Source: an uncultured archaeon (lineage in GTDB: Archaea; Asgardarchaeota; Lokiarchaeia; Sigyniarchaeales; SOKP01). Taken from it: 30,964 nt of DNA. This document shows, piece after piece, positions 16,868 through 30,964 of this stretch. The translations under genes and the position numbers were made by a program. Positions within the stretch are counted from its first letter, which is position 1; the number at the start of each line of letters is the position of its first letter. The stretch spans positions 3,726-34,689 of the forward strand of contig CAZBPC010000028.1 in NCBI GenBank assembly GCA_964493715.1, written 5' to 3'. The notes under the pieces were generated by a model. It searched no databases. It saw nothing but the letters and a program-made list of their open reading frames with translations, and had not been told where the DNA came from.

Positions 16868-18313
16868 TTGCCAATTGGTATTAAAAGCTATGGTGCTTAT
16901 TTACCTAAATACATGCTACCCAGGGAACTCATAGCGAAAGCATGGGACTTTCCGATAGTTCCGGGGACTAAAGCAGTAGCTATGGAGGATGAGGACAGCT
17001 TGACAATGTCAGTAGAAGCAGGACTCGATTGCTTAGAGGGAATTGACCCAAAGACAGTTGATGGAATATTTTTTGCTTCAACAACTCAAGTCTATACTGA
17101 GAAAGATTCAGCCTCTTTAATCGCTACTATTCTCGATATGAGAGGAGATATCATTACCGCAGATTTTACGGACTCAACTAAAGCTGGAACAACAGCTTTA
17201 ACTAGAGCTGTAGATGCGATTAAAGCCAATAAGGATATCAAGAGTATTTTGGTAGTTGCAGCTGATACGAGAAAACCCGAACCCTCAACAATGTGGGAGT
17301 TTGGATTTGCAGATGGTGCTGCCGCTTTACTCATAGCGGATGAAGAAAATATCCCGATCTCGATCGATGATTACTATTCAGTTTCAGCGAACGTGACTGG
17401 ACCATGGAAAAGAGCAGACAAGGATGAGTTTATCAGAACTTTTGAAGTAAAGATGGATGCAAAATTTTACGTGGAAAGCATCACCAAAGTTATGTCTGAA
17501 GTCTTGAAACGTAATAATTTAAACCCTTCCACAGACATCCAAATTGCTGCATATTATTATAATAACCCCAGAATGCATAGCACGATATCCAAGATGATGA
17601 AATTTGGCCAAGGAGTAGCTCAGAACAGCTTGTTCTTTCAAGTAGGTGATATGGGAACGCCAATGCCTTTCATGCTTCTCATTGCTAGCTTGCGAAGACC
17701 TAAACAAGATGACAAGATCATAATGGCCGGTTTTGGAGATGGTGCTGATGCTATTCTCATGCAGGTTCGAGATAAAGATGGTGTCAGGGATATCGGTAAA
17801 GGAAGAATGGGTTTTGTCGGTCACCAAAAATCGATGACCCTTCTAAATAATTACAACAAGTTCATCGAGTTTAAGGAATTGCTTGAGAAGGACAGATATA
17901 CGCGAAAAAGTTCAGCTGTCATTATCTGGCGTGATACTCCTTCAGTTTACAAGTGGTATGGTGTAAAATGCAAAAGTTGTGGAACCGTGCAATATCCTAA
18001 CCTTTCACGAGCTTGTTCCGTATGTAGAGCTGATGATCAATTAGAACCCATTAAACTTGCAAAGAAAGGAGAACTCTTTACATTTACCCTTGATCACTTG
18101 GTTGGTGGAGCTTATCTTAATACGCCCGTCCCACGATGCGTTATAGACCTTGAAGGCGGTGGAAGAGTGTTAGTTAACATGACTGAAATCGAGAACCCTG
18201 AGGAAAATGTCAAGATTGGAATGAAACTCGAGATGACCTTCAGAAAGGAACACGAAGGTGCTGAATTTAAAAATTATTATTGGAAATGTCGACCCGTGAG
18301 GGGGAGACCTTAA
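16868..18313 (+). CDS. HMG-CoA synthase/KASIII-like protein fused to a DUF35 (Zn-ribbon + OB-fold) domain
   Basis: GIKSYGAYLP, DEDSLTM, DGAAALLI, VGDMG, GFGDGADA; C-terminal CKSCG..YP...CSVC and OB fold (FTFT, DLEGGGR, IGMKLEMTFR, YYWK). TTG start after GAGGT. Confidence 0.9.
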   Translation: MPIGIKSYGAYLPKYMLPRELIAKAWDFPIVPGTKAVAMEDEDSLTMSVEAGLDCLEGIDPKTVDGIFFASTTQVYTEKDSASLIATILDMRGDIITADFTDSTKAGTTALTRAVDAIKANKDIKSILVVAADTRKPEPSTMWEFGFADGAAALLIADEENIPISIDDYYSVSANVTGPWKRADKDEFIRTFEVKMDAKFYVESITKVMSEVLKRNNLNPSTDIQIAAYYYNNPRMHSTISKMMKFGQGVAQNSLFFQVGDMGTPMPFMLLIASLRRPKQDDKIIMAGFGDGADAILMQVRDKDGVRDIGKGRMGFVGHQKSMTLLNNYNKFIEFKELLEKDRYTRKSSAVIIWRDTPSVYKWYGVKCKSCGTVQYPNLSRACSVCRADDQLEPIKLAKKGELFTFTLDHLVGGAYLNTPVPRCVIDLEGGGRVLVNMTEIENPEENVKIGMKLEMTFRKEHEGAEFKNYYWKCRPVRGRP

Positions 18314-18314
18314 A

Positions 18315-18320
18315 GGAGGT
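18315..18320 (+). promoter_or_regulatory. Shine-Dalgarno GGAGGT of the thiolase gene
   Basis: GGAGGT 7 nt upstream of ATG 18328 and just after the upstream stop codon, consistent with an operon. Confidence 0.8.
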
Positions 18321-18327
18321 AAAAAAA

Positions 18328-19606
18328 ATGGTTAGACATGGAATTAAAGATAAAGTCGCAATTATCGGTTGCGACATGACAAAATATGGAGAACGATGGG
18401 ATAAGTCACAATACGACCTGCTCTTCGAAGCATTTCAAAGCGCGACGAAGGATGCTGGAATTAAGAAGGATGAGGTGGATGCGAGCTGGGTTGGGATATT
18501 TTACTACTTTACTGGACTATCAGGTGCGATGGTAGAAGATATCCTAAAGTTGGATGGTAAACCCGCTACTCGCGTGGAAAATTACTGCGCTTCGGGCATG
18601 GATGCGTTCCGTAATGCATGCTTTGCCGTTGCTTCTGGTGCATATGACGTTGTCCTCGCCTGTGGAGTGGAGAAACAATATTAACATTTTGTTAATATGC
18701 TCTAGACTCATGGACGAGGGCGGTAGTGGTTTACCCGGATTTACCCAATTCGGACATCCGCTATATCCGACGCCTTCCGCGCCAGCAATGTTTTCGATGG
18801 CGGCCACAAGATGCTTTCACGAGTTCGGATGGACGAAGGAAGATCTTGCCCGAGTCGCGGTAAAAAACCATGATAATGGGTCTCATCATCCAAAAGCACA
18901 TTTTCGAAGCCCAATTTCTTTAGAAGCTGCGATGAAAGCCCCCATGATTGCGGACCCTCTCGGTAGATTCGACTGCTGCGCAAAAATTTAATCACTTAGA
19001 TAAAATTACGCAATGTCAGACGGAGCTGCCGCGTTGATCCTCACCAGACCAGACCTCGCCGAAAGTTATGCCCATGCGGATGACTACGTGCTGGTAAAAG
19101 CCAATGCAATTTCGGCTCACACCAATTTTCCGTGGTACGTGCCACCTGGAGGGCCTGGAGCGGATTTCACTGCATTTCCATCAACGGTAAAAGCGGCGAA
19201 ATACGCCTATCAAGAAGCAGGAATTACCAATCCGCGGAAAGAAATCGATGCTGCAGAAGTCCATGACTGTTTTACGATCACAGTTGATTACATTGCGTAA
19301 TTAACGGTTAATGAACTTATAAACTGTCAGGACCTGCAATTCTGCGACCGAGGGAAAGCAGCTGAAGAACTTAAGAACGGAACGTTCAACTGGGATGGCG
19401 AAACCGCCGTGAATCCATCGGGAGGACTAAAAAGTTTTGGTCATCCTATTGGAAGTACTGGCTGTCGGATGCTCACGGAAATCACCAAGCAAATCCAAGG
19501 ACGTGCTGAGGGAAGGCAAGTGCCCGATGCTAAGATCGGCTTATGCCATAACCTTGGCGGTGCGTTTAGCGTCTGTGCCACGACAATATTAGGTCAACGA
19601 GATTAA
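18328..19606 (+). CDS. SCP2-type thiolase (acetyl-CoA acyltransferase) split by three BHB introns; exons 18328-18674, 18706-18983, 19014-19281, 19312-19606; 395 aa spliced
   Basis: Exons sum to 1188 nt (395 aa + stop). Motifs ENYCASG, GVEK/LMD, KNH.NG..HPKAHF, FDCCA/MSDGAAA, EVHDCFTIT/ELI, NPSGGL..FGHPIG.TG and HNLGG are all intact after splicing. Confidence 0.9.
18675..18705 (+). other. Putative BHB intron 1 (31 nt) in thiolase mRNA
   Basis: ACAATATTAACATTTTGTTAATATGCTCTAG. Central helix GGAG(18669-72)/CTCT(18700-03), bulges AAA and AGA, stem ATATTAAC/GTTAATAT, loop ATTTT. Removal gives GAG AAA CTC ATG (EKLM) and repairs a frameshift. Confidence 0.85.
18984..19013 (+). other. Putative BHB intron 2 (30 nt) in thiolase mRNA
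   Basis: AAATTTAATCACTTAGATAAAATTACGCAA. Central helix GCGC(18978-81)/ACGC(19008-11) with one C-A mismatch, bulges AAA and AAT, stem AATTTaATC/GATaAAATT, loop ACTTA. Removal gives TGC GCA ATG TCA GAC (CAMSD). Confidence 0.78.
19282..19311 (+). other. Putative BHB intron 3 (30 nt) in thiolase mRNA
   Basis: AGTTGATTACATTGCGTAATTAACGGTTAA. Central helix GATC(19276-79)/GGTT(19306-09), bulges ACA and AAT, stem GTTGATTAC/GTAATTAAC, loop ATTGC. Removal gives ATC ACT GAA CTT (HDCFTITEL). Confidence 0.87.
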
Positions 19607-19630
19607 ATTTCTTTTTTTCTATTTTTTTTA
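19607..19630 (+). terminator. Oligo-T archaeal terminator candidate after thiolase
   Basis: ATTTCTTTTTTTCTATTTTTTTTA immediately after the stop codon. Confidence 0.5.
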
Positions 19631-19823
19631 ATGGAATCTACCGGTAAAAATAAGAATTTACGGGCTAAATTCATTGTAAGCTTTATATTCTATACAGAGG
19701 ATAAATATTTATATTTGTTTATATAAGATAAAGTTAAGAAATTCAACTTCAGAGGTAAAAATTATTATTGAACACGAGAAGGAAAACATTGGAAAGCCAA
19801 AAAAAGCGGGTTTAGTTTTAACC

Positions 19824-20174
19824 GTGATTGGGGCGATTTGGATGTTCAGATCATTGGTGTTTATGGTCCCTGACATTTACAAAATTGCTTTAATGGTAGG
19901 GATTATAATTTCAATAATTGGGGGGATCATGGTGATAAAAGGTAAAAAACCTGGAAGGTTAATTTCTTTAATAGGTGGAATTGTAAATCCCATTCTCATT
20001 ATAATGGTTGTATACAACCCTGCTCTTTGGTTCTATGACTTTTGGTACGGTTTACTGAATCACTTCATATTTATGTTTTTGACAATTTATGGATTCGCTA
20101 TTTTTGGGATTTCTTTTTTGTTGTTATTGATCGGTGGGATTCTTAGCTTTAAGATAGAAGAATTACAGATATGA
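19824..20174 (+). CDS. Small multi-pass membrane protein; true start may be TTG 19768 with a frameshift in the A7 run at 19799-19805
   Basis: Hydrophobic 116-aa ORF with repeated I.GGI motifs; SD-like AGAGGT at 19751 precedes an out-of-frame TTG at 19768. Confidence 0.65.
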   Translation: MIGAIWMFRSLVFMVPDIYKIALMVGIIISIIGGIMVIKGKKPGRLISLIGGIVNPILIIMVVYNPALWFYDFWYGLLNHFIFMFLTIYGFAIFGISFLLLLIGGILSFKIEELQI

Positions 20175-20248
20175 TAGATTTAATTTCTAGAGGGACTAAG
20201 ATTTATCCACAAGATTTGGTAAATAAGATTAATTAAATTAATAAAACG

Positions 20249-20485
20249 ATGACCGAAAAGAAAGGTTATGAATTTAAATTATTAAGATTTATTAGTCCAA
20301 TTTGTAAATCAAAAAAAGATCTAAAAATTCCATTTTCTATTATTATTAAGATTCATGAATTAACAACCATTTACATTCCAAAAGGTCTCATATGTGAACA
20401 TCACTTTCAAGCTTTTCTTGATAAAAATTTTGTAATTAGAGGTTACCAGCGAGTTGATTTCACTAATCCTAAGAGTTTAAATTAG
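20249..20485 (+). CDS. Stand-alone, possibly degenerate copy of the Zn-ribbon-like domain found in 490-1401
   Basis: SPICK...ICEHHFQAFLDKNFVIRGYQRVDF versus CPHCN...VCEHSFQIFVDKHFVIRGYQRVDF; the first Cys is replaced by Ser. Confidence 0.6.
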   Translation: MTEKKGYEFKLLRFISPICKSKKDLKIPFSIIIKIHELTTIYIPKGLICEHHFQAFLDKNFVIRGYQRVDFTNPKSLN

Positions 20486-20521
20486 TAGGGGGAGTAGGGG
20501 GGCACTTGCGGAACTACTATT

Positions 20522-21011
20522 ATTATAGTTTTAACTATAGTTAAATTAGATGATGCTTATGGATAGTCTTGGGAAATGTTTTTAAGGAAATTTTAATAGG
20601 TTTTTTTTTATGGGCTGTGAGATGTGTGAATCTGTTTGTTCCTAAATTTTGCATCCAAAAAAGTGTTAACCTCAAAATCAACAAACTATATTAGAAACTA
20701 TAGTATTCATTCATATTTTTATTATTTTGACTTTTTCAAGCAAATCCCTCTGGAAGTGGTGTTAAATTCCAAGAAGCGAGCTTAAAATAGTTTTGTTTTA
20801 ATGAGTATATGAAAGCAATCCAAAAATGAGCGCAATATCCTAGGTTTCCACCAACACGGCACAGGAATATTCTTGTTTAAAGAAGAAATATAGTAATTTC
20901 AGATAATCCAATCTTATATATTTCCTATTAAAATCCAATGGATTCTTAAATAAAGCTCCCCCCACATTTAACATAACCAGCTTTATGTTTAACTATAATT
21001 TAGACTATAGT
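20522..21011. repeat. Three copies of a spaced dyad A(C/T)TATA-N6-ACTATAGT (20522, 20685, 20992); the first includes the 16-bp palindrome TTTAACTATAGTTAAA (20530-20545)
   Basis: ATTATAgttttaACTATAGT, ACTATAttagaaACTATAGT and ACTATAatttagACTATAGT read directly; identical 12-bp period in all three. Confidence 0.7.
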
Positions 21012-21012
21012 T

Positions 21013-21089
21013 TGCCCGATTGGTTTGTGTCATAACCTTGGGGTGCATTCAGCGTGTGCGCCACGACCATATTAGGGCAACGAGATTAA
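21013..21089 (+). pseudogene. Diverged duplicate of the thiolase 3' end (copy of 19521-19606)
   Basis: TGCCCGAT..TGGTTTGTGTCATAACCTTGGGGTGCATTCAGCGTGTGCGCCACGACCATATTAGGGCAACGAGATTAA encodes IGLCHNLG/AFSVCATTILGQRD*. It has an 8-nt and a 1-nt deletion plus mainly third-position changes, and is followed by a similar T-tract. Confidence 0.88.
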
Positions 21090-21143
21090 AAATATTACTT
21101 TTTTTTTATATTTTTTGGGTCTAATTTTATTTTAAGTTCTAAT

Positions 21144-21665
21144 TTATTTTTCTCGCATGTGAGAGATTATCATTCTCGTTAATTCTTCAAAGGATTTTTC
21201 CACATTTTCGCCAGTTTTGCTGGAACATTCAATATAGTTATTCAGACCCAATGAATCTGCAAGCCGTTTTGCTTCGTTGATAGAAACTTCTCTAAATTGT
21301 TCTAAATCTAATTTACCTCCTAGTAATAAGATCGGGAAATTTACGTTAGTTTCATTTATAATTGATAACCAGTCATGAACATGGGAAAAGGAGGAATAAT
21401 CAGTAATATCATACATTAAAATTCCCCCCATTGCTCCTTGGATATATTGGGGAAATAAAGTTCGAAATCGTTCTTCACCACCAAAATCCCAGATCATGAG
21501 ATTAACACGCTTTTCATCGACTTCGATGATTTTAGTTTCAAATTCCACTCCTATAGTCATTTGAGAATCAGGGAGGAATATATCTTTAACAAATCGTTTA
21601 TTTAAAGTTGTCTTACCACAACCTGCGTCACCGAAAATAACGATTTTAAAAATCAAGTCATACAT
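21144..21665 (-). CDS. Rab-like small GTPase (173 aa), paralogue A
   Basis: FKIVIFGDAGCGKTT, TIGVEF, WDFGGEERFR, GGKLD, ECSSKTGENV; start moved to ATG 21665 to match the paralogue. Confidence 0.93.
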   Translation of the reverse strand: MYDLIFKIVIFGDAGCGKTTLNKRFVKDIFLPDSQMTIGVEFETKIIEVDEKRVNLMIWDFGGEERFRTLFPQYIQGAMGGILMYDITDYSSFSHVHDWLSIINETNVNFPILLLGGKLDLEQFREVSINEAKRLADSLGLNNYIECSSKTGENVEKSFEELTRMIISHMREK

Positions 21666-22177
21666 TTTAATCAAATTTAATAATTTTTTCTGGTTATTAA
21701 TCTGAATTACTTGGTAATATATCGCTTCATCAAGAAATCAACGACTAAGTAAAAATTTAATTCTTGATCTCGTGTTTAAATTTTTAAGTGTTCGATCTTG
21801 ATGGGATATAGTAAAAATGGAAAATATCTACAAATATTTAAACTTTCTCCAAATAATTTATCAATATCTAATTTGTATGAGCTAAATTGATGAAAAGTAA
21901 TATTCAAATCAATCTATTTAGAGCAATTTTTCCCTTTAAAGCTAAATTTTAAGAAAAAAAAGGCATGAAATTTTTATTTAGTATAAACAATGATTCCAAC
22001 CACAAAGACAGCTATATTATTAAGAAAAAATTTCCAAACGGAATTATGTCTTTTGGATATGCTGCTCATATTGATATAGCAATATCAGTTATTTTACCAA
22101 GATTGAGAACAACCAATCAGATTTCATAATTCAATTATTAAAAGCAAAAAAAAAGAATTTAACAAATAGCCATTTGA

Positions 22178-23059
22178 TCACTCGATTGGCCATTCAAGTA
22201 GTGATAGAATCAAATTTTTGTGAGATAATCCTCCCCTAGTAAGTGTGCCAACAAAATTTTCTCGTGTAAACATCTTTTTTAAGACATAACTTAAAACTTG
22301 CTTATCACGTAGTCCTTTTTCATTAGCTTCCTTTTGAAATCGATGAGCTTTCAGATGTAGTGAATCAATCTCATCCATTCTATCTTTTAAAAACGATCTG
22401 TCTTTAAATACTCCTTTCCCAGAAGTAAAAAGAAGTAAATTTTCCATTCCTTTGGTAAGATCATGTAATTTTTTAATTGATTGAAATATAAGGAATATAT
22501 CTTCGGGGATGTCCGTATCCTTACCAAATATCATTTGATATTTTGGCATGACTGCATCGGTGATGAATGCCCACTGTTGTTTTCGTTCAATTAAACTAAC
22601 AATTTCAGGTGCATGTCCGGGAGTATCTACTATCTCAAAAATGTATTTACCTGACTTGGAACAAATCAGATCTTGTAACAATTCAGCTTGAAAGGGTTGA
22701 AAATCTAACCCCCAAGTCATTTGACGATAATCGGGATAATTCTTTTTTTTTTTCAACAATGGAATAGCCAATTTACTAGCATATACGGGAATTTTAAATT
22801 CCTCTTGGAGCATGCGACCTCCCCCGCAATGATCTTCATGGTTATGAGTAATTACACATTTTGCAACCATGTTTTCGGAATCAAGAGATTTGATGAATTC
22901 ACGCAAATCATCTACTCCTCCGGGAGCTCCTGCGTCAATTAATAACCCATCAATTAAAAATACGGAAGTCCAAAAGGGTTGTGGCATCAATTTATTATCT
23001 GAAGACCATTTCCACTCTAATATCTCGTTATTACAATGATAAACTTTTTGAATAACCAT
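22178..23059 (-). CDS. MBL-fold metallo-hydrolase
   Basis: LIDAG, THNHEDHCGG, TPGHA, FITD. Confidence 0.88.
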   Translation of the reverse strand: MVIQKVYHCNNEILEWKWSSDNKLMPQPFWTSVFLIDGLLIDAGAPGGVDDLREFIKSLDSENMVAKCVITHNHEDHCGGGRMLQEEFKIPVYASKLAIPLLKKKKNYPDYRQMTWGLDFQPFQAELLQDLICSKSGKYIFEIVDTPGHAPEIVSLIERKQQWAFITDAVMPKYQMIFGKDTDIPEDIFLIFQSIKKLHDLTKGMENLLLFTSGKGVFKDRSFLKDRMDEIDSLHLKAHRFQKEANEKGLRDKQVLSYVLKKMFTRENFVGTLTRGGLSHKNLILSLLEWPIE

Positions 23060-23204
23060 AATAGTTTCATTTGCGATAAAAATAAAAAGTGTAGATTTAA
23101 CGTTGCCTAGTTATTATGAACTTCAATAATTCAAACTTTAAATTTTTTGGCTCTTAATTTTATCATAAAAATCCATCAATTGGAGAATAGAAGGAGAAAG
23201 AAAA

Positions 23205-23306
23205 TTGAGTAAAACTGAATTTAAAGGCAATTTATTGAGTCCTTTACCCGTTATACTGGTAGGAGCAAATGTGAAAAATTAACCAAATTATTTACTTATC
23301 GGATAA
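23205..23306 (+). pseudogene. Flavin reductase/flavoredoxin N-terminal remnant
   Basis: After AAGGAG (23191), TTG start gives MSKTEFKGNLLSPLPVILVGANVKN*PNYLLIG*, matching the P.PV.LVGA.V.GKPN motif, with a premature TAA at 23280 and truncation. Confidence 0.65.
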
Positions 23307-23414
23307 CTATAACACTCGGAGACAGCATGGACCATTTATTCTTATATATTAAAAGATTTTCAGCAAAATACTATTATAGGATTCTTACTTCTGTAGATTT
23401 ATCTCTACAATTTT

Positions 23415-23936
23415 TCAGGACTCTCTCATTTTATTAACCATAATTCTCGTTAAATCTTCAAACGATTTTTCCACATTTTCACCCGTTTTGCTGGAACATT
23501 CAACATATTTATTTAAACCCATAGAGTTTGCAAGTTGCTTTCCCTCGTTAAAAGAAATTTCTCTCTTTTCATTTAAATCTATTTTACCTCCTAGTAATAA
23601 GATGGGAAAGCGCTCTCTTTCGCCATTTATAACTGATAACCAATCAATGGTATGAGAAAAAGAAGAGTAATCCGTGATATCACACATTAAAATTCCCCCC
23701 ATGGCTCCATGAATATATTGGGGAAAGATAAATCGAAATCGTTCTTCACCTCCAAAGTCCCAAATCATTAACTTAACTCGCATATCATCGATCTTGATGA
23801 TTTTAGTTTCAAATTCCACTCCTATAGTCATTTGAGAATCCGGTATAAATAAGTCGGTCACAAAACGTTTAGTTAAAGTAGTCTTACCTGAACCTGCGTC
23901 GCCAAAAATGACGGTTTTGAAAATTGCGTCATACAT
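23415..23936 (-). CDS. Rab-like small GTPase (173 aa), paralogue B
   Basis: FKTVIFGDAGSGKTT, TIGVEF, WDFGGEERFR, GGKID, ECSSKTGENV. Confidence 0.93.
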   Translation of the reverse strand: MYDAIFKTVIFGDAGSGKTTLTKRFVTDLFIPDSQMTIGVEFETKIIKIDDMRVKLMIWDFGGEERFRFIFPQYIHGAMGGILMCDITDYSSFSHTIDWLSVINGERERFPILLLGGKIDLNEKREISFNEGKQLANSMGLNKYVECSSKTGENVEKSFEDLTRIMVNKMRES

Positions 23937-24249
23937 TTTAATCTAATTTAATTTTTTTTCTGGTTATTAATCTGATATATGTGAAAATATAACTTTTTAG
24001 CCACTCAACTAATACTCAAGTAAGAATTTCTTTCTATATCTTTCTTTCTGAATAGCCCATCGAGCAAAGATAATATGAAACTTGTGATATTTAAATTTTT
24101 CCATAATAATTTACCAATATCAAAATTGTATGAAGTAAATGGATAGAAAATGAGAGATCAATCAGTACTTTTAGTTAATTTCATTTTTATCCTATGAATT
24201 ATAGGAAAATAATATTATTACTGAATATTAGATAAAATTTTTTTTATTT

Positions 24250-24768
24250 TTATCTTCTTAAATCAATAATTCTACGAGTTAACATGCTAATCGCATCATC
24301 AACTATAACAATATCAGTTGGAGACGCTTCAATATAGATTCCTCCCTCATTTTCTGCAAATCCACGAGCCTTTTCTCTAAGATGTGTTTTGTCGACTTCT
24401 TTAAGCTTATCAATATTATTTCCAATCAATAAAAAAGGTCTAAAACCATTAACCTGTATTATTTCTGTAAAAAAATTTCTAACTTCAGCAAATGTTTCCT
24501 CCTTGGTCAAATCGAAAATTAAAATTATTCCTGCAGCTCCTTTGTAAAACGTGCTACGAATGAGCTCAAATCGTTTTTGACTTCCAATGTCCCATAGCGA
24601 AAGATTAGCAATTTCACTGAGTTGGAACTCAACATCTTTAGTTAAAATGTCGACTCCAACTGTCAACTTGTAGTTTGCAGCAAACCGATTTTTAACGATT
24701 TGTTGGACCAACCGATTTTTAACTAAATCTCTTCCAATTAGTATTATTTTAAGTTTAAAATGAGACAT
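24250..24768 (-). CDS. Rab-like protein with degenerate nucleotide-binding motifs (pseudo-GTPase candidate)
   Basis: Likely start MSHFKLKIILIG at 24768. Retains YKLTVGVDILTK, WDIGSQKRF, FYKGAAG and FDLT, but G1 is GRDLVKNR, G4 is NNID and G5 is EASP. Confidence 0.85.
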   Translation of the reverse strand: MSHFKLKIILIGRDLVKNRLVQQIVKNRFAANYKLTVGVDILTKDVEFQLSEIANLSLWDIGSQKRFELIRSTFYKGAAGIILIFDLTKEETFAEVRNFFTEIIQVNGFRPFLLIGNNIDKLKEVDKTHLREKARGFAENEGGIYIEASPTDIVIVDDAISMLTRRIIDLRR

Positions 24769-24980
24769 GATTACAGATTGAATAACCCAAGTAATGATAA
24801 GAAAATCTAATCTTATAAATAATTTCATTAAATTAATAGCATTAATATCTTAGCATCAACTTCAACTAATTCAAATGAGGTTTGATACTTCGAACATTAA
24901 GACTATAAATATGCTTAGCCCTATTTATGCATAAATTAATTTGTAACAATGCCAATCATAAAAATTATTGTGGTTAAAAA

Positions 24981-25820
24981 ATGGATGCTAAAAAATTAGA
25001 TTTTGAATCAATATATTTTGATCTCTATGAATTAAGTCCAGGGATATTCGCAGCAATTTCAGCAGAAAAAATATTCACTTCAAATGCGGGATTTTTTGAT
25101 CTTGGTAATTATCTAATTATCTTTGATACACTCATGGACCCATATTCCACTATTGATCTCATTAAAGCGTCAAAACAATTTACAAATAAGGATCCTTCTT
25201 TTCTAATAAACAGTCATCATCACATAGATCATTTATTTGGGAATAGAAAGTTTCCCATGAATATTCCTATTATTTGCAGCAGTGAAGCATTGAAAGAATC
25301 ACAAAATTACCTAAATACGCGGTTTAGAGATTTTCAGAATAGAGCTCCTGAAGAACTTAAAAAAACAGAAGAGGTCTTATTGAATGAAAAGAATCCCGAT
25401 AAAATTTTAGAGTTGAAAAATGATATAAATACATGGAATGAAATTAGGGACCCCGATTTTGAATTAAGACAACCAGATTTTATAATTGATGATTCTATTA
25501 CTATAATTGGTACCAAAAACCAAGTTCAAGTAATACATATAGGAGCCGCTCACACTAAAGGGGATATAATCGCTCTTTTCGAAAAAGAAAAAATTTGTTT
25601 TATGGGAGACTTATTATTCGAGCAAACTGATCCTAATTGGGCTAGTGGTGCACCTGGATCACCAGTTCCAGCGAACCCTGAACGGCTTCGCGATACTTTA
25701 AACGATTACGCTGAGAAGGATATTGACATTTATATCCCGGGGCATGGTAAAATATGCACTAAAAAAATTCTTCGGGATAATGCAATATTTTACAATGAGT
25801 ATTTTATAAAAAAAAAATAA
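24981..25820 (+). CDS. MBL-fold metallo-hydrolase (cyclase-like subgroup)
   Basis: SNAG, FDT, NSHHHIDHLFGN, AHTKGD, GDLLF, PGHG. Confidence 0.9.
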   Translation: MDAKKLDFESIYFDLYELSPGIFAAISAEKIFTSNAGFFDLGNYLIIFDTLMDPYSTIDLIKASKQFTNKDPSFLINSHHHIDHLFGNRKFPMNIPIICSSEALKESQNYLNTRFRDFQNRAPEELKKTEEVLLNEKNPDKILELKNDINTWNEIRDPDFELRQPDFIIDDSITIIGTKNQVQVIHIGAAHTKGDIIALFEKEKICFMGDLLFEQTDPNWASGAPGSPVPANPERLRDTLNDYAEKDIDIYIPGHGKICTKKILRDNAIFYNEYFIKKK

Positions 25821-25975
25821 GCCTTCGAAATTATTAATATCTCTTTTTTCTTATATGGTAATATTTGTACGAAAACGGAACTTTTAGAAAATGCTGATGA
25901 TAATATCAAAAGCTATAAATATTAAATTGATTCTATTTAGACTATTAGATTTTTTTCCCAAAAAGGTGAATTAAT

Positions 25976-26521
25976 TTGAATAAAGGAAGAAATATGTTAG
26001 GGGTTATATCCCTCATCATTGCATTATCAGGGGTCGCGGTGGGGGCTTTTTCATTCATTTCCATGAATAATTATATCAACGAAACGAATGCATATGTTCA
26101 GCCAATGGCAAGTGTGTATTATGATGATGTGTCTATATATTCAATACCTGATCAATCATCCCAAATATTCAACTATAATCAAATAAGTTATGATAATCGT
26201 GATGCATTTAATCTCACATCTGATTCCTATACTATTCATGAACCGGGAATTTATCAAGTAACAGCGCAATATAGTATAGAAGCATATGATGGGGATTTTT
26301 TTATGATCCAACTTCTTAGTAATAGTACTATAGCTTGCTCCAGATCATTTACAGCAAGCACATATACTAATACATTTGGGGTTGGTCTAACGAATAATTT
26401 TAAATTTGTAGAAGGTGAATCTCTTAGTATACAAATATACCAATATAATGGTGCACACACAACAAGAAATATATTCCCTGGAGGGGCACACAACTTTTTT
26501 ACGATTGCTAAACTAGCCTAA
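25976..26521 (+). CDS. Membrane-anchored C1q/TNF-like beta-sandwich domain protein
   Basis: N-terminal TM helix, then FNYNQISYDNRDAFNLTSDSYTIHEPGIYQVTAQ, FVEGESLSIQIY and NFFTIAKL, matching the C1q-like pattern. Confidence 0.65.
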   Translation: MNKGRNMLGVISLIIALSGVAVGAFSFISMNNYINETNAYVQPMASVYYDDVSIYSIPDQSSQIFNYNQISYDNRDAFNLTSDSYTIHEPGIYQVTAQYSIEAYDGDFFMIQLLSNSTIACSRSFTASTYTNTFGVGLTNNFKFVEGESLSIQIYQYNGAHTTRNIFPGGAHNFFTIAKLA

Positions 26522-26736
26522 GATTACTGAAGAATACTTAAGAATAAATCCATTTTCTTTTCTTTTCATTTTCTTTTTTAAAATAGCTCTAATAAATGAG
26601 GTAAGGTAAATAAAAATAAATATTAAAAATTATTTGAGTATATTCACTATTATAAAAAATTTTCATTCTTAAACTTAATCCTTGATAAAGTAAAATATAT
26701 CAAATCCTTACAGCAATAGAGATAATTAATAATTTA

Positions 26737-28140
26737 TTACTTCTTATTATATTTCATCCCACATTGTGGACAAAAGGTGGCTTCTTCATTGATTTCTAAT
26801 CCACAAAAAGAACATTTAATTATTTGAGGTTCAAGTGGTATTAATTCTTCTAGTTGTTCTTCTGGTATATTCTCTCTCACTTCCTTTTCTGGTATGACTT
26901 CCAGCTTCCTCTCCCCGTAATCAAATTCTCTTTTTGAAATTTCTGTTAATTGAAAAGCTGTTCTTGATTTTCTTGGATATTTTATCTCGGTTCTATTAAT
27001 AGATTTCCTTCTTCTTGTAATAAGCATCCCAGCTATGGACATTGTAATGGCAATGAGAATCACTATTATTATTATTATTATTATAATTTCAATAGGAAAT
27101 TGGTTTCCATTAATGGGAAGAACTTCTTGAATATCCTCTCCATTACCGTTAAAAAAGTTGTTTAAAACGTTATTGTATCGAGAATAATAGAGATAAATAC
27201 CAACATGATTAGTTGTAATTGTGTTCATTACGATTATATTATTATTACTTCTCCATAAATATAATCCCGCAAAACTGTTATAACTTGCGTTATTTCCCGA
27301 AACGGTATTAACATTGCTATTCCATAAAAATATTCCATTCCAACCGTTATGATTTGCGATATTTCCTACAACTTTAATATCTTGACTATCGGATATGTCT
27401 ATTCCATTGTCACGATTATAGGTAACATTGTTGTTCATTATAGTATTGTTATTACTTGAAGAGGATAAATAAATCCCTCTCCAATCATTATTAAAAGCAG
27501 AGTTATTCAAAATTTTGTTATTGTTGCTTAAACCTAAATATATCCCATCCGAATTCTCTTTTAATGTGTTTTCCGAAAGAATATTATCATGACTCCCTAC
27601 TAAAAACAAACCAAACTCAACATTATTGTTTACTATGTTTCCAACAATGGTAATGTTTTGACTTTGGTATAAACCGATTCCAACCCCATAATTAGTTGAA
27701 CAGTCGTTATTTATTAAATGACCATTTAGAACATTATTTAATTTGATTCCTGCATTATATAGTCCTGGACCGGAATTATAAAGCGTACAGTTTTCAATCT
27801 TAAAGTACACGTCGGAATTTTCAATCACGATGCAACTTCCTGAGTCTCCAGCATCTATGACCAAATCCACTATGACGTAAGGTTCAATATAGGTGCCATT
27901 CCCCGTACAAATTCCCAGAGCTTTGGCAGCAGTCCAATTGTTATCAATATGAATTTTTCCTGATGTTGCTGAGATTTGTAGATTTTTATTATCTAACTGA
28001 ATTTCATCGTTATATTCTGAACTTTTATCGCTGTTTCTCGTATTAAAATTGAGATTATTATTAATAATTATTGGTGATAAAGCGAAAAGAATTCCTAATG
28101 CCATCAAAAAAATAATTCTTGTTTTAGTTTTTAATTTCAT
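26737..28140 (-). CDS. Surface protein with parallel beta-helix (NosD/pectin-lyase-like) repeats, C-terminal TM helix and cytoplasmic zinc ribbon
   Basis: Signal/TM at MKLKTK (28140), GNGTYIEPYVI, repeated GIYL..SNNN.I..N, a poly-Ile TM, and CSFCG...FCPQCG. Confidence 0.88.
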   Translation of the reverse strand: MKLKTKTRIIFLMALGILFALSPIIINNNLNFNTRNSDKSSEYNDEIQLDNKNLQISATSGKIHIDNNWTAAKALGICTGNGTYIEPYVIVDLVIDAGDSGSCIVIENSDVYFKIENCTLYNSGPGLYNAGIKLNNVLNGHLINNDCSTNYGVGIGLYQSQNITIVGNIVNNNVEFGLFLVGSHDNILSENTLKENSDGIYLGLSNNNKILNNSAFNNDWRGIYLSSSSNNNTIMNNNVTYNRDNGIDISDSQDIKVVGNIANHNGWNGIFLWNSNVNTVSGNNASYNSFAGLYLWRSNNNIIVMNTITTNHVGIYLYYSRYNNVLNNFFNGNGEDIQEVLPINGNQFPIEIIIIIIIIVILIAITMSIAGMLITRRRKSINRTEIKYPRKSRTAFQLTEISKREFDYGERKLEVIPEKEVRENIPEEQLEELIPLEPQIIKCSFCGLEINEEATFCPQCGMKYNKK

Positions 28141-28572
28141 GCTGTTTTCTCCCATAATTGATAAGTCGTTAATAATTAGGTTACTTTCCTTCATGTACAT
28201 TTCTGTCAATTAGGTTTAGCGGGAAATAACAAATATTAATTTTATTTTCTCATTTCATCAATGCTCTCAAATATTATGATTTGTCCTCTAAACCAGTCTA
28301 ATGTATAATTATCTTTATTTCTGTTGATGAATGCAATAAACCATTCAATCATTTAATCTTTGTTCATACTTTTATCTTGAGATTTTTTTTAATTCTTTTA
28401 TTACACTTAGGACATACATTAATAATCTTAGGATTAATTGGATTTGTTATTTTTGACGTTACGAATATAATCTGACAATTATAGAAAAAAAAACCATGAG
28501 TCTTCATTATTAATAACAATTCTTTTTATTACAGTCATAAATTATTTAATTCCTAATTAATTTCAATTACTT

Positions 28573-29427
28573 ATGAGTAGTGATGGATTTAATCGGTTTA
28601 AAGGCAATGTAAATACTGATAGAATCAAATATATTGCCGATCCTCAGCTGAGAAACATTGTGAACGTTTCTATTGCCTTAGCACGACCTTTATTGGTAAA
28701 GGGAGAGCCTGGTACTGGAAAAACGCTGTTATCTCATGCAATAGCAGAATCATTGGGAAAAAGACTCATTATATGGAATGTAAAGAGCACTACAGAAGCA
28801 ATAGATGGGTGTTACATGTATGATACTGTCCAAAGACTAAACGATAGCCGATTTGGGTGTGAGGATCGAAATGTCGATAATATTAAAGATTATATAACTC
28901 TTGGGCCTTTAGGTGAAGCTTTTGATTCTGATGAGCAAGTCGTTCTTCTTATTGATGAAATAGATAAAGCGGATATCGAGTTTCCAAATGATCTTCTGCA
29001 AGAGTTAGACGTTATGGAATTTTATGTTAAAGAGACAAAAGAATTTGTAAAAGCTAAAACGCGACCAATCGTTATAATCACATCAAACAACGAAAAAGAG
29101 CTTCCTGATGCATTCTTGCGTAGATGCGTGTTCCATTGGATTGAATTTCCCATGAAAGAATTCATGACAGAAATTTGTAATCTCCATTATCCAAATTTAA
29201 AGCAAAATTTATTGGATCAATGTTTAAAACACTTCTATGCCCTTAGAGCTATAACTAAATTAAGAAAAATGCCTTCGACTTCAGAACTACTCGATTGGAT
29301 TGGGGTATTGCTTAAAAGTGGAATTTCAATCGAAGAATTTAGAAAAGAAATACCCTTTTTAGGCGTGTTATTAAAAAAAGAGAAAGATATAGAAATCGCT
29401 CTCGAGAAAATCAAATTTCCGACATGA
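28573..29427 (+). CDS. MoxR-family AAA+ ATPase (CoxD-like)
   Basis: PLLVKGEPGTGKT, LLIDEIDKADIEFPNDLL, ITSNNEKELPDAFLRRC, PSTSELLDW. Confidence 0.95.
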   Translation: MSSDGFNRFKGNVNTDRIKYIADPQLRNIVNVSIALARPLLVKGEPGTGKTLLSHAIAESLGKRLIIWNVKSTTEAIDGCYMYDTVQRLNDSRFGCEDRNVDNIKDYITLGPLGEAFDSDEQVVLLIDEIDKADIEFPNDLLQELDVMEFYVKETKEFVKAKTRPIVIITSNNEKELPDAFLRRCVFHWIEFPMKEFMTEICNLHYPNLKQNLLDQCLKHFYALRAITKLRKMPSTSELLDWIGVLLKSGISIEEFRKEIPFLGVLLKKEKDIEIALEKIKFPT

Positions 29428-29748
29428 TATATTCCTCTCTTGCTCATTTCAATACTTCCTTTATACTAGATTCTCTTTTGTATTTTCAAGAAGGGGTTAA
29501 TTTATAAGCAATTAATTTCATATCATTCAGAAATCAGTTCTCTCATATTTGGATCTTTTAATTCAGGGATTTTGTAGAATAGAAAAAAATATCAAAAAAA
29601 ATTAAAAATGAACCCCCAACTCTAAAAAAACCATTAACGTAGAGAATGAATTTGTATATTTCATCTACTCTTATTTTGCGTGAATCGACAGAATGATATA
29701 AAATAAAATCATAATTAATTAATTTAGGCGTTCACTCTAATATCATGG

Positions 29749-30964
29749 ATGTTTGTCGAATACTTTTACTATCTCAAAGATAGATTGCCCGTATCCCTAA
29801 CGGAATACATGACCCTAATCGAAGCATTAGACAAGGGACTCATCCATAACATGGTAGAATTCTATTACATCTCTCGCTCACTCCTCTGCAAGAATGAACA
29901 CCATTTTGACATCTATGACATCGCTTTTGCGAACTTTTTTAAAGACGCATCGCTCAAATTTCCCGATGAGATTAAACAACAAATCTGGGATTGGCTAGAT
30001 AAAAAACTCGACCCACAAGAATTACCCGATAATTTCCAGCAATTCATGAGTGAAATCTTCGACCTTGAAGAACTCCAAAAACAACTCGATGAATTGCTCA
30101 AAAGACAAGACGAAGACCATGATGGCGGCGATCACTGGATCGGAACTCAAGGCGAATCGCGGTTTGGCCATTCTGGACAAAATCCAATGGGCATGAAAAT
30201 CGGTGGGTCGGCTGGGATGCGAATGGCTATCCAAATCGCCCAAAAAAGAATCTTTGCCGATTACAGAAAAGATGTCGTCTTAGATACCCGCCAAATCAAG
30301 GTCGCACTCAAGCGCCTCAAAAAACTTGAAGAAATCGGCAAGCAAGATGAATTAAACATCGATAAAACCATCGATCAAACGGCTAAGAATGGCGGAGATA
30401 TTGATCTAATTTTCGAAAAAAAGAGAAAGAATAACGTGAAGCTGATATTGCTAATGGATGTCGGTGGCTCCATGACTCCTTATGCTCACCTCGTAAACCT
30501 CCTATTTTCTGCCGCAAACAACATGTCGCACTGGAAAAAGTTTGAGCACTTTTATTTTCACAACTGCCTTTATGAGACTCTCTATTTCAACGCACAGAGA
30601 AATCCGGAAGAATCCATTCCATTTGAAGAATTTTTGAAAAAATATAACAGTAAATATAAAGTAGTCGTGGTGGGCGACGCCGCAATAATTTAATCGAATT
30701 CCGATTAAGTTGTGAGGGCAAGTTGGGAGCTCACCGAAAGATATGGGAGTATCTACTATTATCATCGGAACGAATTGCCCGGTGCGTATTATATACGCGA
30801 ACTTGCGAACCATTTCAAGAATAATGTCGTATGGCTTAACCCAGAAATCATACGGTTGGAGTGGGTGCCGTGGACGCGGAAGATAATTTCAAGCATCATC
30901 CCGATGTTCCACCTTACAGTGGAAGGGATTGAAGAAGCCATGGATTTTCTACGGAAGGGCGGTA
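29749..30964 (+). CDS. VWA-domain (CoxE-like) partner of MoxR, split by one BHB intron; exons 29749-30686 and 30717->30964 (runs off the window end)
   Basis: HDGGDHWIGT.G.S.FGH.G, LLMDVGGSM and YFHNCLY. After intron removal the frame reads VGDAAMASWELTERYGSIYY...VWLNPE...MFHLTVEGIEEAMDFLRKGG, open to the window end. Confidence 0.9.
30687..30716 (+). other. Putative BHB intron 4 (30 nt) in VWA mRNA
   Basis: AATTTAATCGAATTCCGATTAAGTTGTGAG. Central helix CGCA(30681-84)/TGTG(30711-14), bulges ATA and AGG, 9-bp stem ATTTAATCG/CGATTAAGT, loop AATTC, outer GC/GC pairs. Removal gives GCA ATG GCA (GDAAMA). Confidence 0.88.

Follow-up and report, generated by a model that had tools for sequence, protein, structure and literature searches.

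The stretch of DNA analysed here (30,964 nt, hereafter the window) raises the question of how two protein genes, one for a thiolase and one for a VWA/CoxE-like protein, can be expressed when four short inserts interrupt their reading frames, three in the thiolase gene (31, 30 and 30 nt) and one in the VWA/CoxE-like gene (30 nt). The source genome is of the Promethearchaeota (Asgard) and has 31% GC; Rfam and ARAGORN searches of the window gave no matches. Our results indicate that the four inserts are very probably tRNA-type introns that need to be excised from the mRNA. The full reading, in which they are bulge-helix-bulge mini-introns of pre-mRNAs, cut by EndA, ligated by RtcB and belonging to a genome-wide class, is in our view highly likely.

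Re-reading of the sequence placed all four inserts where the initial annotation had put them (Table 1), and the insertion points that it had named in the encoded proteins were correct: after GVEK, within DCC..SDG, after the two residues that follow HDCFT, and within GDA.M. The thiolase exons match Pfam coordinates in sequential order, first in Thiolase_N and then in Thiolase_C_1, and removal of the three inserts leaves a protein of 395 aa that aligns collinearly with equally long, uninterrupted orthologues. The spliced VWA/CoxE-like product is likewise 395 aa, the length of its uninterrupted orthologues; orthologues of this protein occur in 62 of the 79 genomes of the order.

Table 1. Exons, introns and the upstream operon gene in the window.
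Feature	Position	Strand	Evidence and remarks
Upstream operon gene, HMG-CoA-synthase-like protein fused to DUF35-type zinc-ribbon and OB domains	16868..18313	+	ORF; Pfam ACP_syn_III, zf-ChsH2, OB_ChsH2_C
Thiolase exon 1	18328..18674	+	Pfam Thiolase_N 1-113; collinear with orthologues
Intron I1, 31 nt, frame-shifting	18675..18705	+	Exon tetramer 18669-18672 pairs with 3' arm 18700-18703; bulges 18673-18675 and 18704-18706
Thiolase exon 2	18706..18983	+	Pfam Thiolase_N 155-197
Intron I2, 30 nt, in-frame TAA	18984..19013	+	Exon tetramer 18978-18981 pairs at 3 of 4 positions with 19008-19011
Thiolase exon 3, 268 nt	19014..19281	+	Pfam Thiolase_C_1 14-49; ends joined to each other in RNA
Intron I3, 30 nt, in-frame TAA	19282..19311	+	Exon tetramer 19276-19279 pairs with 19306-19309
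Thiolase exon 4, stop codon included	19312..19606	+	Pfam Thiolase_C_1 52-143
VWA/CoxE-like gene, exon 1	29749..30686	+	Pfam VWA_CoxE
Intron I4, 30 nt, in-frame TAA	30687..30716	+	Exon tetramer 30681-30684 pairs with 30711-30714
VWA/CoxE-like gene, exon 2	30717..30964	+	Reaches the window end; last base is the first base of the stop codon

The inserts are sporadic among relatives. With the upstream HMG-CoA-synthase-like protein as the query, we retrieved 50 related loci. A full-length alignment showed no insert in 36 of 39 related thiolases, and I1 was missing from every relative, both in that alignment (39/39) and in another (17/17). Five of 47 related thiolase loci carried a single similar insert, at a site used in the window or at another one: site A (L001 and L010), site C (L003 and L022) or site D (L014). 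The I2 site is also occupied in L003 (31 nt, in a register parsed by eye from the alignment) and in L022 (30 nt), with hairpins that differ from that of I2. I3 is common to the sister locus L014, from which it differs only in the loop; within the population it varies at two positions, again in the loop (19292 A>T and 19294 T>G). I4 occurs at the identical site in 2 of 29 related loci (L110 and L111), and 11 of 13 aligned VWA relatives lack it exactly to the base, the alignment gap coinciding with the predicted cut bonds.

All four window introns can be parsed in one way, as an exon tetramer, a 3-nt bulge, a hairpin of 8–10 bp, a 4-nt arm and a second 3-nt bulge, and if each bulge is cut between its second and third base, collinear frames are restored in both genes. 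The 3' arm had been said to complement the local exon, and it does so with 4, 3, 4 and 4 of 4 pairs (15 of 16 overall), compared with a mean of 1.54 of 4 in a cross-site control (P ~1e-5 for the four jointly). Between the window copy of I4 and those in L110 and L111, an exon C->A change is matched by an intron G->U change, a compensatory substitution that keeps the exon-intron helix, and the changes seen in related copies of the rtcB and nadE intron hairpins, described below, are pair-preserving. The finer description of the four introns was also borne out: given the bulge-helix-bulge register, which is matched by the RNA junction reported below (19013|19014 and 19281|19282), the first base is A in all four and the last two are AG or AA, each loop (ATTTT, ACTTA, ATTGC and AATTC) has C-G or G-C as its closing pair, with RNAfold favouring a 3-nt loop for I1, and I2 and I4 have a common 9-mer at their 5' ends. 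The bulge-helix-bulge form is relaxed, with G-U pairs and an outer exon-exon helix of only 1–3 bp in the four window introns. Fold z-scores were -2.68 for I1 and -4.34 for I4. Besides this relaxed form, two fold results count against the bulge-helix-bulge reading: the I3 region folds no better than its shuffles (z = -0.41), and at minimum energy I4 adopts a 12-bp hairpin that has a 3x3 internal loop in place of offset bulges.

On the transcript, the upstream exon tetramer would pair with the 4-nt 3' arm of the intron and the inner helix would form as an AT-rich hairpin of 8–10 bp, together exposing two 3-nt bulges; EndA would cleave between bases 2 and 3 of each bulge and RtcB would ligate the exons, and a transcript left unspliced would yield a truncated protein from each gene. 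The genome encodes two EndA paralogues (PF01974, 102 and 68 bits) and a single-copy RtcB (484 bits), whose own gene is split by an intron. The available part of one study describes Asgard EndA as an (alpha-beta)2 form with an L1 loop, and reports that two-subunit EndA accepts relaxed motifs (PMC5829648); the presence of two paralogues fits this broad-specificity form. We infer that EndA and RtcB are the acting enzymes, with linear spliced mRNA as the probable main product.

Metatranscriptome data provide a joint at the predicted positions. One 231-nt contig, from run X23 (depth 9.5, with one mismatch to the window), joins 19082-19281 directly to 19014-19044, and no base at the joint could belong to either side. 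Position 19281 is thereby linked to 19014, that is, the predicted 5' site of I3 to the predicted 3' site of I2, two of the eight cut sites in the window. The joint is missing from DNA runs X3 and X4, which come from samples other than the RNA; these two independent runs span the whole stretch, inserts included, without joints at the inserts. The contig fits a product of EndA-type cutting and RtcB-type ligation, and the accessible text of PMC3326292 offers a precedent in the exon-end circles published for the cbf5 intron. A circular exon of this kind would also mean that ends are sometimes mis-joined. RNA runs X23 and X24 gave two contigs each on the 14-kb stretch, and none of these contained an exon-exon junction or an intron circle or covered I1 or I4.

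The window introns are not isolated cases. A partial census yielded six further Pfam-validated mRNA introns of 29–32 nt, in rtcB, cdhD, nadE and the genes for ribosomal protein uS8, proteasome alpha and an AMP-binding enzyme, each with Pfam coordinates contiguous across the insert and a layout as in the window, so that the genome holds at least 10 mRNA introns. Scans that relied solely on structure and open frames produced too much noise (3784 hits, then 852 loci, and no peak in length) and became useful only once sequence or GC-pair filters and Pfam checks had been introduced. One set of 54 checked loci comprised 5 validated introns, 23 cases of two genes or otherwise non-intron and 26 uninformative loci; a second set of 40 comprised 1 validated and 1 probable intron, 8 cases of two genes and 30 uninformative loci. 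An HdrA-like candidate (G000 C7:60391-60417) was rejected, its in-frame TGA lying inside a Cys motif and probably encoding selenocysteine, with no intron.

Several features proposed as common to the four window introns extend to this larger set, namely size, the first A, the ending and the G/C loop-closing pair; the A-N-T-N-N loop does not, fitting one of seven further introns. The stop found in every intron is uninformative, because the census required a stop in the candidate insert, and by our estimate an in-frame stop arises by chance in about two thirds of AT-rich 30-mers. MAFFT gave no in-register alignment of 11 intron hairpins. In the same genome, several tRNA genes with interruptions can be parsed, if roughly, as carrying inserts of 29–30 nt and a like layout. 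We propose that the window introns belong to a genome-wide class of 29–32 nt introns that tRNA genes also contain, that is quickly gained and lost in the lineage and that prefers GC-rich exon tetramers.

It had also been conjectured that EndA/RtcB activity could serve as a global switch, a reading in which splicing would be the rate-limiting step for the intron-bearing genes. Every validated intron would block translation if retained, but the census had required this, and the dependence of rtcB on splicing in this genome would give a feedback loop. Each intron, however, occurs in only 1 to 3 of roughly 30–60 relatives examined, so that any regulation would be strain-specific and recent, and this distribution resembles tolerated selfish or neutral insertions more closely; we regard such a switch as unlikely. 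We consider it very improbable that a nuclease and a ligase other than EndA and RtcB remove the inserts from RNA, or that decay ends were joined by chance. The motifs do depart from the canonical form, and the role of the two enzymes here is a presumed one, but the observed cut positions are those expected of EndA, between the second and third bases of a 3-nt bulge, both enzyme genes are present in the genome, and relaxed motifs lie within the range that the available text of PMC5829648 gives for two-subunit EndA.

The possibility that the genes are simply broken, through pseudogene formation, assembly errors or strain mixture, and that the inserts are unprocessed junk, is close to refuted. 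It would be in keeping with the source, a metagenome-assembled genome in 160 contigs with a contamination of 3.85%, and with the fact that the few RNA contigs include no linear spliced RNA. Against it stand the two DNA runs that cover the inserts without joints, exons that are otherwise intact (protein identity to orthologues up to 94%), inserts at the same sites in other assemblies with pairing-preserving changes, the interruption of the single-copy rtcB as well, and an RNA joint exactly at two predicted cut sites. Just as improbable is retention of the inserts in mRNA with the ribosome bypassing hairpin and stop, as in phage T4 gene 60, which would suit inserts that are all hairpins carrying or causing a stop and would tolerate lengths of 29–32 nt, including frame-shifting ones, but which predicts neither the pairing of 3' arm and exon tetramer nor compensatory change, leaves the RNA cut-and-join at predicted sites unexplained, and is at odds with the roughly parsed inserts of equal size and layout in tRNA genes of the same genome.

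The suggestion that the introns sit in the most conserved motifs stands in part: the eight sites examined lean toward conserved positions (local percentiles 0.29–0.95, mean 0.76, P = 0.004), but as seen through a discovery route that itself favours conserved domains. Exon tetramers paired with validated introns average 3.0 G or C of 4, compared with 1.03 for non-validated candidates. In a genome of 31% GC such GC-rich tetramers point to Gly and Ala codons, and they may be an alternative cause of the placement at conserved sites. The idea of a common progenitor found no sequence signal, the mean identity over the first 10 nt being 3.89 among 9 sites and 3.93 in 91 control hairpins (P = 0.55), and blastn-short searches with 9 introns found no second copy of any in the genome. 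The nadE and rtcB introns are 90–93% identical between genera, and most relatives lack them. We found no co-conversion tracts around these two shared introns, near-minus-far synonymous identity ranking 9 of 29 and 4 of 28, respectively, a pattern that fits intron-only transfer or strong constraint. We tentatively suggest, with rather more doubt than confidence, that a process in this lineage places hairpin introns of about 30 nt into GC-rich tetramers of protein and tRNA genes; that some of them move alone between genomes into the same conserved site, without flanking DNA, for which a reverse-splicing-like route fits; that expression of the ligase gene requires the ligase itself; and that multi-intron transcripts shed circular exons. 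If true, split protein genes, intron homing and exon circles would together form a prokaryotic system in the archaea most closely related to eukaryotes.

According to the available text of PMC7714728, which states it explicitly, the endonuclease-spliced introns in archaeal protein genes are that of cbf5 and one in a 5' leader. Our search of the openly accessible literature, bioRxiv supplements excluded, turned up no publication that describes introns of this kind in protein genes of Asgard archaea. Here a single Asgard genome contains at least 10 mRNA introns, three of them in one gene and others in core genes (RNA ligase, proteasome alpha, ribosomal protein uS8 and NAD synthetase), and close relatives vary in their intron complement. 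Gene callers will show intron-bearing genes as truncated or split, and Asgard pathway and marker-gene inferences can therefore be wrong. The archaeal group nearest to eukaryotes now offers direct tests of how introns are gained and lost and how their sites are chosen. In the three-intron thiolase there is no tRNA body to hold the exons and the outer helix is 1–3 bp, which poses the question of how the correct ends are joined; the exon circle gives an early indication that wrong ends are sometimes ligated.

A model splicing switch is known from eukaryotic XBP1/HAC1 mRNA, in which a very short intron (26 nt in XBP1) is excised by an endonuclease, RtcB-type ligation follows and the reading frame is changed. 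There, however, the nuclease is IRE1 and not the tRNA endonuclease, the substrate has twin stem-loops and not a bulge-helix-bulge, and there is one dedicated regulatory target. Splicing of this type is touched on in the available parts of PMC8718801 and bioRxiv 10.1101/2025.06.17.660180. From the same lineage as our genome, non-canonical introns have been described in the tRNA genes of Asgard archaea (bioRxiv 10.64898/2026.10.13.758758), which share the presumed enzymes and repeated gains at splice-competent sites, again with no arrival route found. In its available text that study deals with tRNA genes only, the word 'mRNA' being absent and 'protein-coding' being used only for synteny, and its median tRNA insert is 22–23 nt, compared with 29–32 nt for the mRNA introns here. 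The 5' UTR intron of HVO_1309 in Haloferax volcanii is, by the accessible account in PMC7714728, a bulge-helix-bulge intron in an mRNA that the archaeal splicing endonuclease cuts, as that work confirmed both in vivo and in vitro, but it is a single case in that species and lies in an untranslated leader, outside the reading frame.

The cbf5 pre-mRNA intron of Crenarchaeota (Watanabe 2002; Yoshinari 2006; Yokobori 2009; as presented in the available parts of PMC5829648, PMC7714728 and PMC12397907) also resembles our introns, being a short intron in coding sequence with a BHB-type motif, in hosts with two-subunit EndA and with gain and loss among relatives; its exon-end circles (PMC3326292, available text) also resemble the joined exon of X23. 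In our genome cbf5 itself is uninterrupted, with the TruB_N matches in one 343-aa open frame. The introns described here differ from the cbf5 system in occurring in a different phylum and in different genes, with up to three per gene and at least 10 per genome, in forming a uniform hairpin class of 29–32 nt, and in having an internal exon joined end to end.

Removal of four short inserts (I1 to I3 in the thiolase gene, I4 in the VWA/CoxE-like gene) yields proteins of 395 aa each, and the thiolase pieces match, in order, Thiolase_N 1-113 and 155-197 and Thiolase_C_1 14-49 and 52-143 (Pfam). Two DNA runs, which are not likely to be the source runs, covered the inserts and the whole stretch with no joints at the inserts; I1 to I4 are real and not assembly faults. 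Rfam and ARAGORN gave no matches within the window. The source, G000, is a metagenome-assembled genome of 3.68 Mb and 31% GC in which the window occupies C28:3726-34689, and a query with the gene that precedes the thiolase gene returned 50 related loci, nearly all titled as Promethearchaeota or other Asgard MAGs. Within 16868-20000, zinc-ribbon (DUF35) and OB domains are fused to an HMG-CoA-synthase-like gene, and the fusion and thiolase genes form an island of 40-45% GC in a window of roughly 30% GC. Elsewhere, each DNA run (X3 and X4) has contigs that connect 21322 straight to 23742, so that the 2.4-kb stretch 21323-23741 is absent from part of the population.

Host genes and proposed introns, with window positions unless another contig or locus is named
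Feature	Location	Strand	Length	Remarks
Thiolase gene	18328-19606	+		in four pieces; downstream of HMG-CoA-synthase/DUF35 fusion
VWA/CoxE-like gene	start 29749	+		split once
I1	18675-18705	+	31 nt	thiolase
I2	18984-19013	+	30 nt	thiolase
I3	19282-19311	+	30 nt	thiolase
I4	30687-30716	+	30 nt	VWA/CoxE-like gene
rtcB intron	G000 C2:12136-12164	minus	29 nt	validated, set 1; same plan, between GVGY and DINCG motifs; single rtcB gene, outside window
cdhD intron			32 nt	validated, set 1
nadE intron			30 nt	validated, set 1
uS8 intron			29 nt	validated, set 1
Proteasome alpha intron			31 nt	validated, set 1
AMP-binding enzyme intron			30 nt	validated, set 2
Alpha/beta hydrolase intron			30 nt	probable, set 2
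nadE stretch of another genus, with intron	L171 1441-1530 (genome G046)	minus	30 nt	length is that of the intron; same YGD|GG site as in G000

The four inserts share a plan in which an exon tetramer (the four exon bases just upstream) is followed by a 3-nt bulge, an AT-rich hairpin of 8-10 bp whose loop has 3-5 nt, a 4-nt arm that pairs with the tetramer, and a 3-nt bulge beginning with A. The last base of the 5' bulge is the first base of the intron, A in every one, and the third base of the 3' bulge is the first base of the next exon. This layout is a relaxed version of the bulge-helix-bulge found in archaeal tRNA introns, with G-U pairs and an outer helix of just 1-3 bp; at its free-energy minimum, I4 folds into a longer hairpin whose internal loop is symmetric. 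The initial annotation had proposed that each arm is tailored to its local exon, and this was confirmed: arm and tetramer form 4, 3, 4 and 4 of 4 pairs in I1 to I4, compared to a mean of 1.54 of 4 when arms were set against the tetramers of other sites (P ~1e-5 for the four introns jointly). The pairing is kept in related copies. Between the window and the related loci L110/L111, the first pair of the I4 exon-arm helix is altered on both sides and one G-U becomes G-C, and population variants of I3 and its allele in locus L014 differ in the loop alone. The observation of four hairpin inserts was sound and its tRNA-type reading is well supported; we consider it very probable that I1 to I4 are tRNA-type introns tailored to their sites.

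The thiolase gene is held by 47 of the 50 related loci, mostly as a single uninterrupted frame of 395 aa (up to 94% identical), and 36 of the 39 full-length relatives in the alignment are insert-free. Five relatives carry one insert apiece: L001 and L010 have 29 nt following DAFRN, a fourth site; L003 (31 nt) and L022 (30 nt) are occupied at the I2 site; and L014 has 30 nt at the I3 site. I4 is also found in 2 of 29 related loci, and 11 of 13 aligned VWA/CoxE-like relatives are without it, their alignment gap coinciding exactly with the predicted bonds. In a tree of 40 thiolase genes, every insert carrier included fell within one subclade, with I3 common to the window and its sister L014, and I1 found in the window alone. 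The window and L022 are separated on this tree by non-carriers (the third I2-site carrier, L003, is a partial contig and was left off), and their hairpins are unlike, with 20 of 30 aligned bases identical; on these grounds the I2 site looks like a case of repeated gain at one position. L001 (5259 bases), filed as a bacterial MAG (Candidatus Deferrimicrobium), carries the same Asgard operon at 92-95% protein identity, thiolase intron included, and is probably a mis-binned contig.

Small parts of the thiolase gene were present in two salt-marsh metatranscriptome runs. A contig of 231 nt from run X23 (depth 9.5, one mismatch to the window) runs from 19082-19281 directly into 19014-19044, with zero shared letters at the junction. 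The ends of this joint are the last (19281) and first (19014) bases of exon 3, both obey a cut after the second bulge base, and both positions were implied by the intron boundaries of the initial annotation, set before any RNA evidence. The joint was absent from the two DNA runs, X3 and X4, controls that are unmatched to the RNA sample. On the simplest interpretation, cuts in introns 2 and 3 released exon 3, whose two ends were then ligated to each other to give a circle of 268 nt. As one contig in one run, the joint is evidence of cleavage with ligation at two of the eight sites and does not extend to the linear spliced mRNA. Exon-end circles beside the cbf5 intron have been reported in Sulfolobus, where they were interpreted as ligase slips (PMC3326292).

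To extend the comparison to the genome, G000 was scanned for sites with this layout at which excision would merge two open frames of >=150 nt kept apart by a stop (stop required, hairpin >=7 bp, lengths 22-45 nt), and the flanking frames were checked against Pfam. With A demanded at three bulge positions (set 1), 54 loci were recovered, of which 5 were validated by contiguous Pfam model coordinates, 23 were pairs of different genes or otherwise not introns, and 26 were uninformative. With >=2 G-C pairs demanded in the central helix and the bulge bases left free (set 2), 40 loci comprised 1 validated, 1 probable, 8 two-gene and 30 uninformative cases. Including the four in the window, G000 has ten validated introns and one probable, a lower bound, as the scan is blind to introns that contain no stop, are flanked by short exons or take another shape. 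An HdrA-like gene (C7:60391-60417) was rejected as a false candidate; it has an in-frame TGA within a Cys motif (DDCSI-stop-IC) and ARAGORN found a tRNA-Sec in G000, and it is therefore probably a selenoprotein.

The shared size claimed for the original four extends to the larger set: all 11 introns are 29-32 nt long (29-31 nt for homology-only inserts in relatives). The first base is A in 11 of 11 and the 3' bulge opens with A in 11 of 11, 7 of these sites having been found without any base filter. Endings in AG (4) or AA (6) account for all introns except one, which ends in AU. The loop is closed by a G/C pair in 9 of 11 minimum-energy folds, while G/C pairs make up just 25 of the 95 pairs in the stems. 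The proposed A-N-T-N-N loop, in contrast, occurs in the original four and in only 1 of 7 new introns, and a loop consensus is absent. The in-frame stop in each intron is uninformative, being required by the scan and present by chance, we estimate, in about two thirds of AT-rich 30-mers.

Placement in the most conserved motifs had also been suggested. Conservation was scored as column entropy among 23-40 orthologues per protein, and the six residues around the junction ranked at percentiles of 0.95, 0.89, 0.70, 0.73, 0.29, 0.95, 0.94 and 0.64 at eight sites (mean 0.76; P = 0.004 versus uniform placement), although ascertainment by the reader's eye and by Pfam validation both lean to conserved domains. 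The introns thus lean to conserved stretches, but this is not a rule. Alternatively, a preference for GC-rich tetramers, and not conservation, may drive placement. Exon tetramers average 3.0 of 4 GC at validated sites versus 1.03 of 4 in 91 non-validated candidates (0 of 20,000 resamples as high), with a mean of 2.2 versus 0.3 tetramer-arm G-C pairs, and in a genome of 31% GC such tetramers are found chiefly in codons for Gly, Ala, Arg and Pro, residues typical of conserved loops.

The idea of a common progenitor fared less well. The first 10 nt of introns at different sites share 3.89 identities, compared to 3.93 for control hairpins (P = 0.55), and none of the nine introns validated by then had a second copy in G000; for these reasons we see no sequence sign of a self-copying ancestor. 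In contrast to the hairpins at the I2 site, two other introns are alike between genera. The nadE intron is also present in another genus (locus L171, genome G046) and matches at 28 of 30 aligned bases, where the coding sequences are 0.71 identical (0.55 at third positions), and the rtcB intron in one genome of a third genus, with 26 of 29 bases identical (coding identity 0.75). The rtcB insert is missing from 27 of 28 loci covering the site, and the best nadE matches are full-length open frames in nearly all cases. Close to the junction (within 20 codons), synonymous identity was not raised in the nadE and rtcB intron carriers, giving no sign of co-conversion. Two readings are available: the whole hairpin may be strongly constrained and have been precisely lost many times, or the intron alone may have been transferred into a conserved site. 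The proteasome intron was found in G000 only, among 57 genomes with a match. On the L171 contig, a second, shorter nadE-like frame lies beside the intron-bearing nadE.

G000 encodes two EndA paralogues (C5:38084 and C58:18731) and one RtcB, the gene for the latter being itself split, with Pfam coordinates 1-46 and 48-245 flanking the insert. A global regulatory switch through EndA/RtcB activity, also proposed in the initial annotation, is considered unlikely. Asgard EndA is described as a two-subunit form with a loop linked to broad specificity (PMC5829648). Although the genome is rated 100% complete, ARAGORN found just 27 tRNA genes, of which 12 are interrupted. A rough parse accommodated an insert of 29-30 nt with this layout in about 5 of the 12, and non-canonical introns probably conceal many further tRNA genes, as a recent preprint describes for Asgard archaea. 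That study reports heavy and repeated gain of Asgard tRNA introns, by no identified route, and does not mention mRNAs (bioRxiv 10.64898/2026.10.13.758758). In the searchable literature, mRNA substrates are limited to crenarchaeal cbf5 and a single 5' leader of Haloferax (PMC7714728). Unlike the crenarchaeal gene, cbf5 is uninterrupted in G000 (C34:27218-27559). What is new compared to these cases is that one gene holds three introns and one Asgard genome at least ten, that they form a uniform 30-nt class in which both bulges have an invariant A, that GC-rich tetramers are preferred, that introns turn over among close relatives, and that an RNA joint lies at the predicted bonds, in which an internal exon appears to have been circularised.
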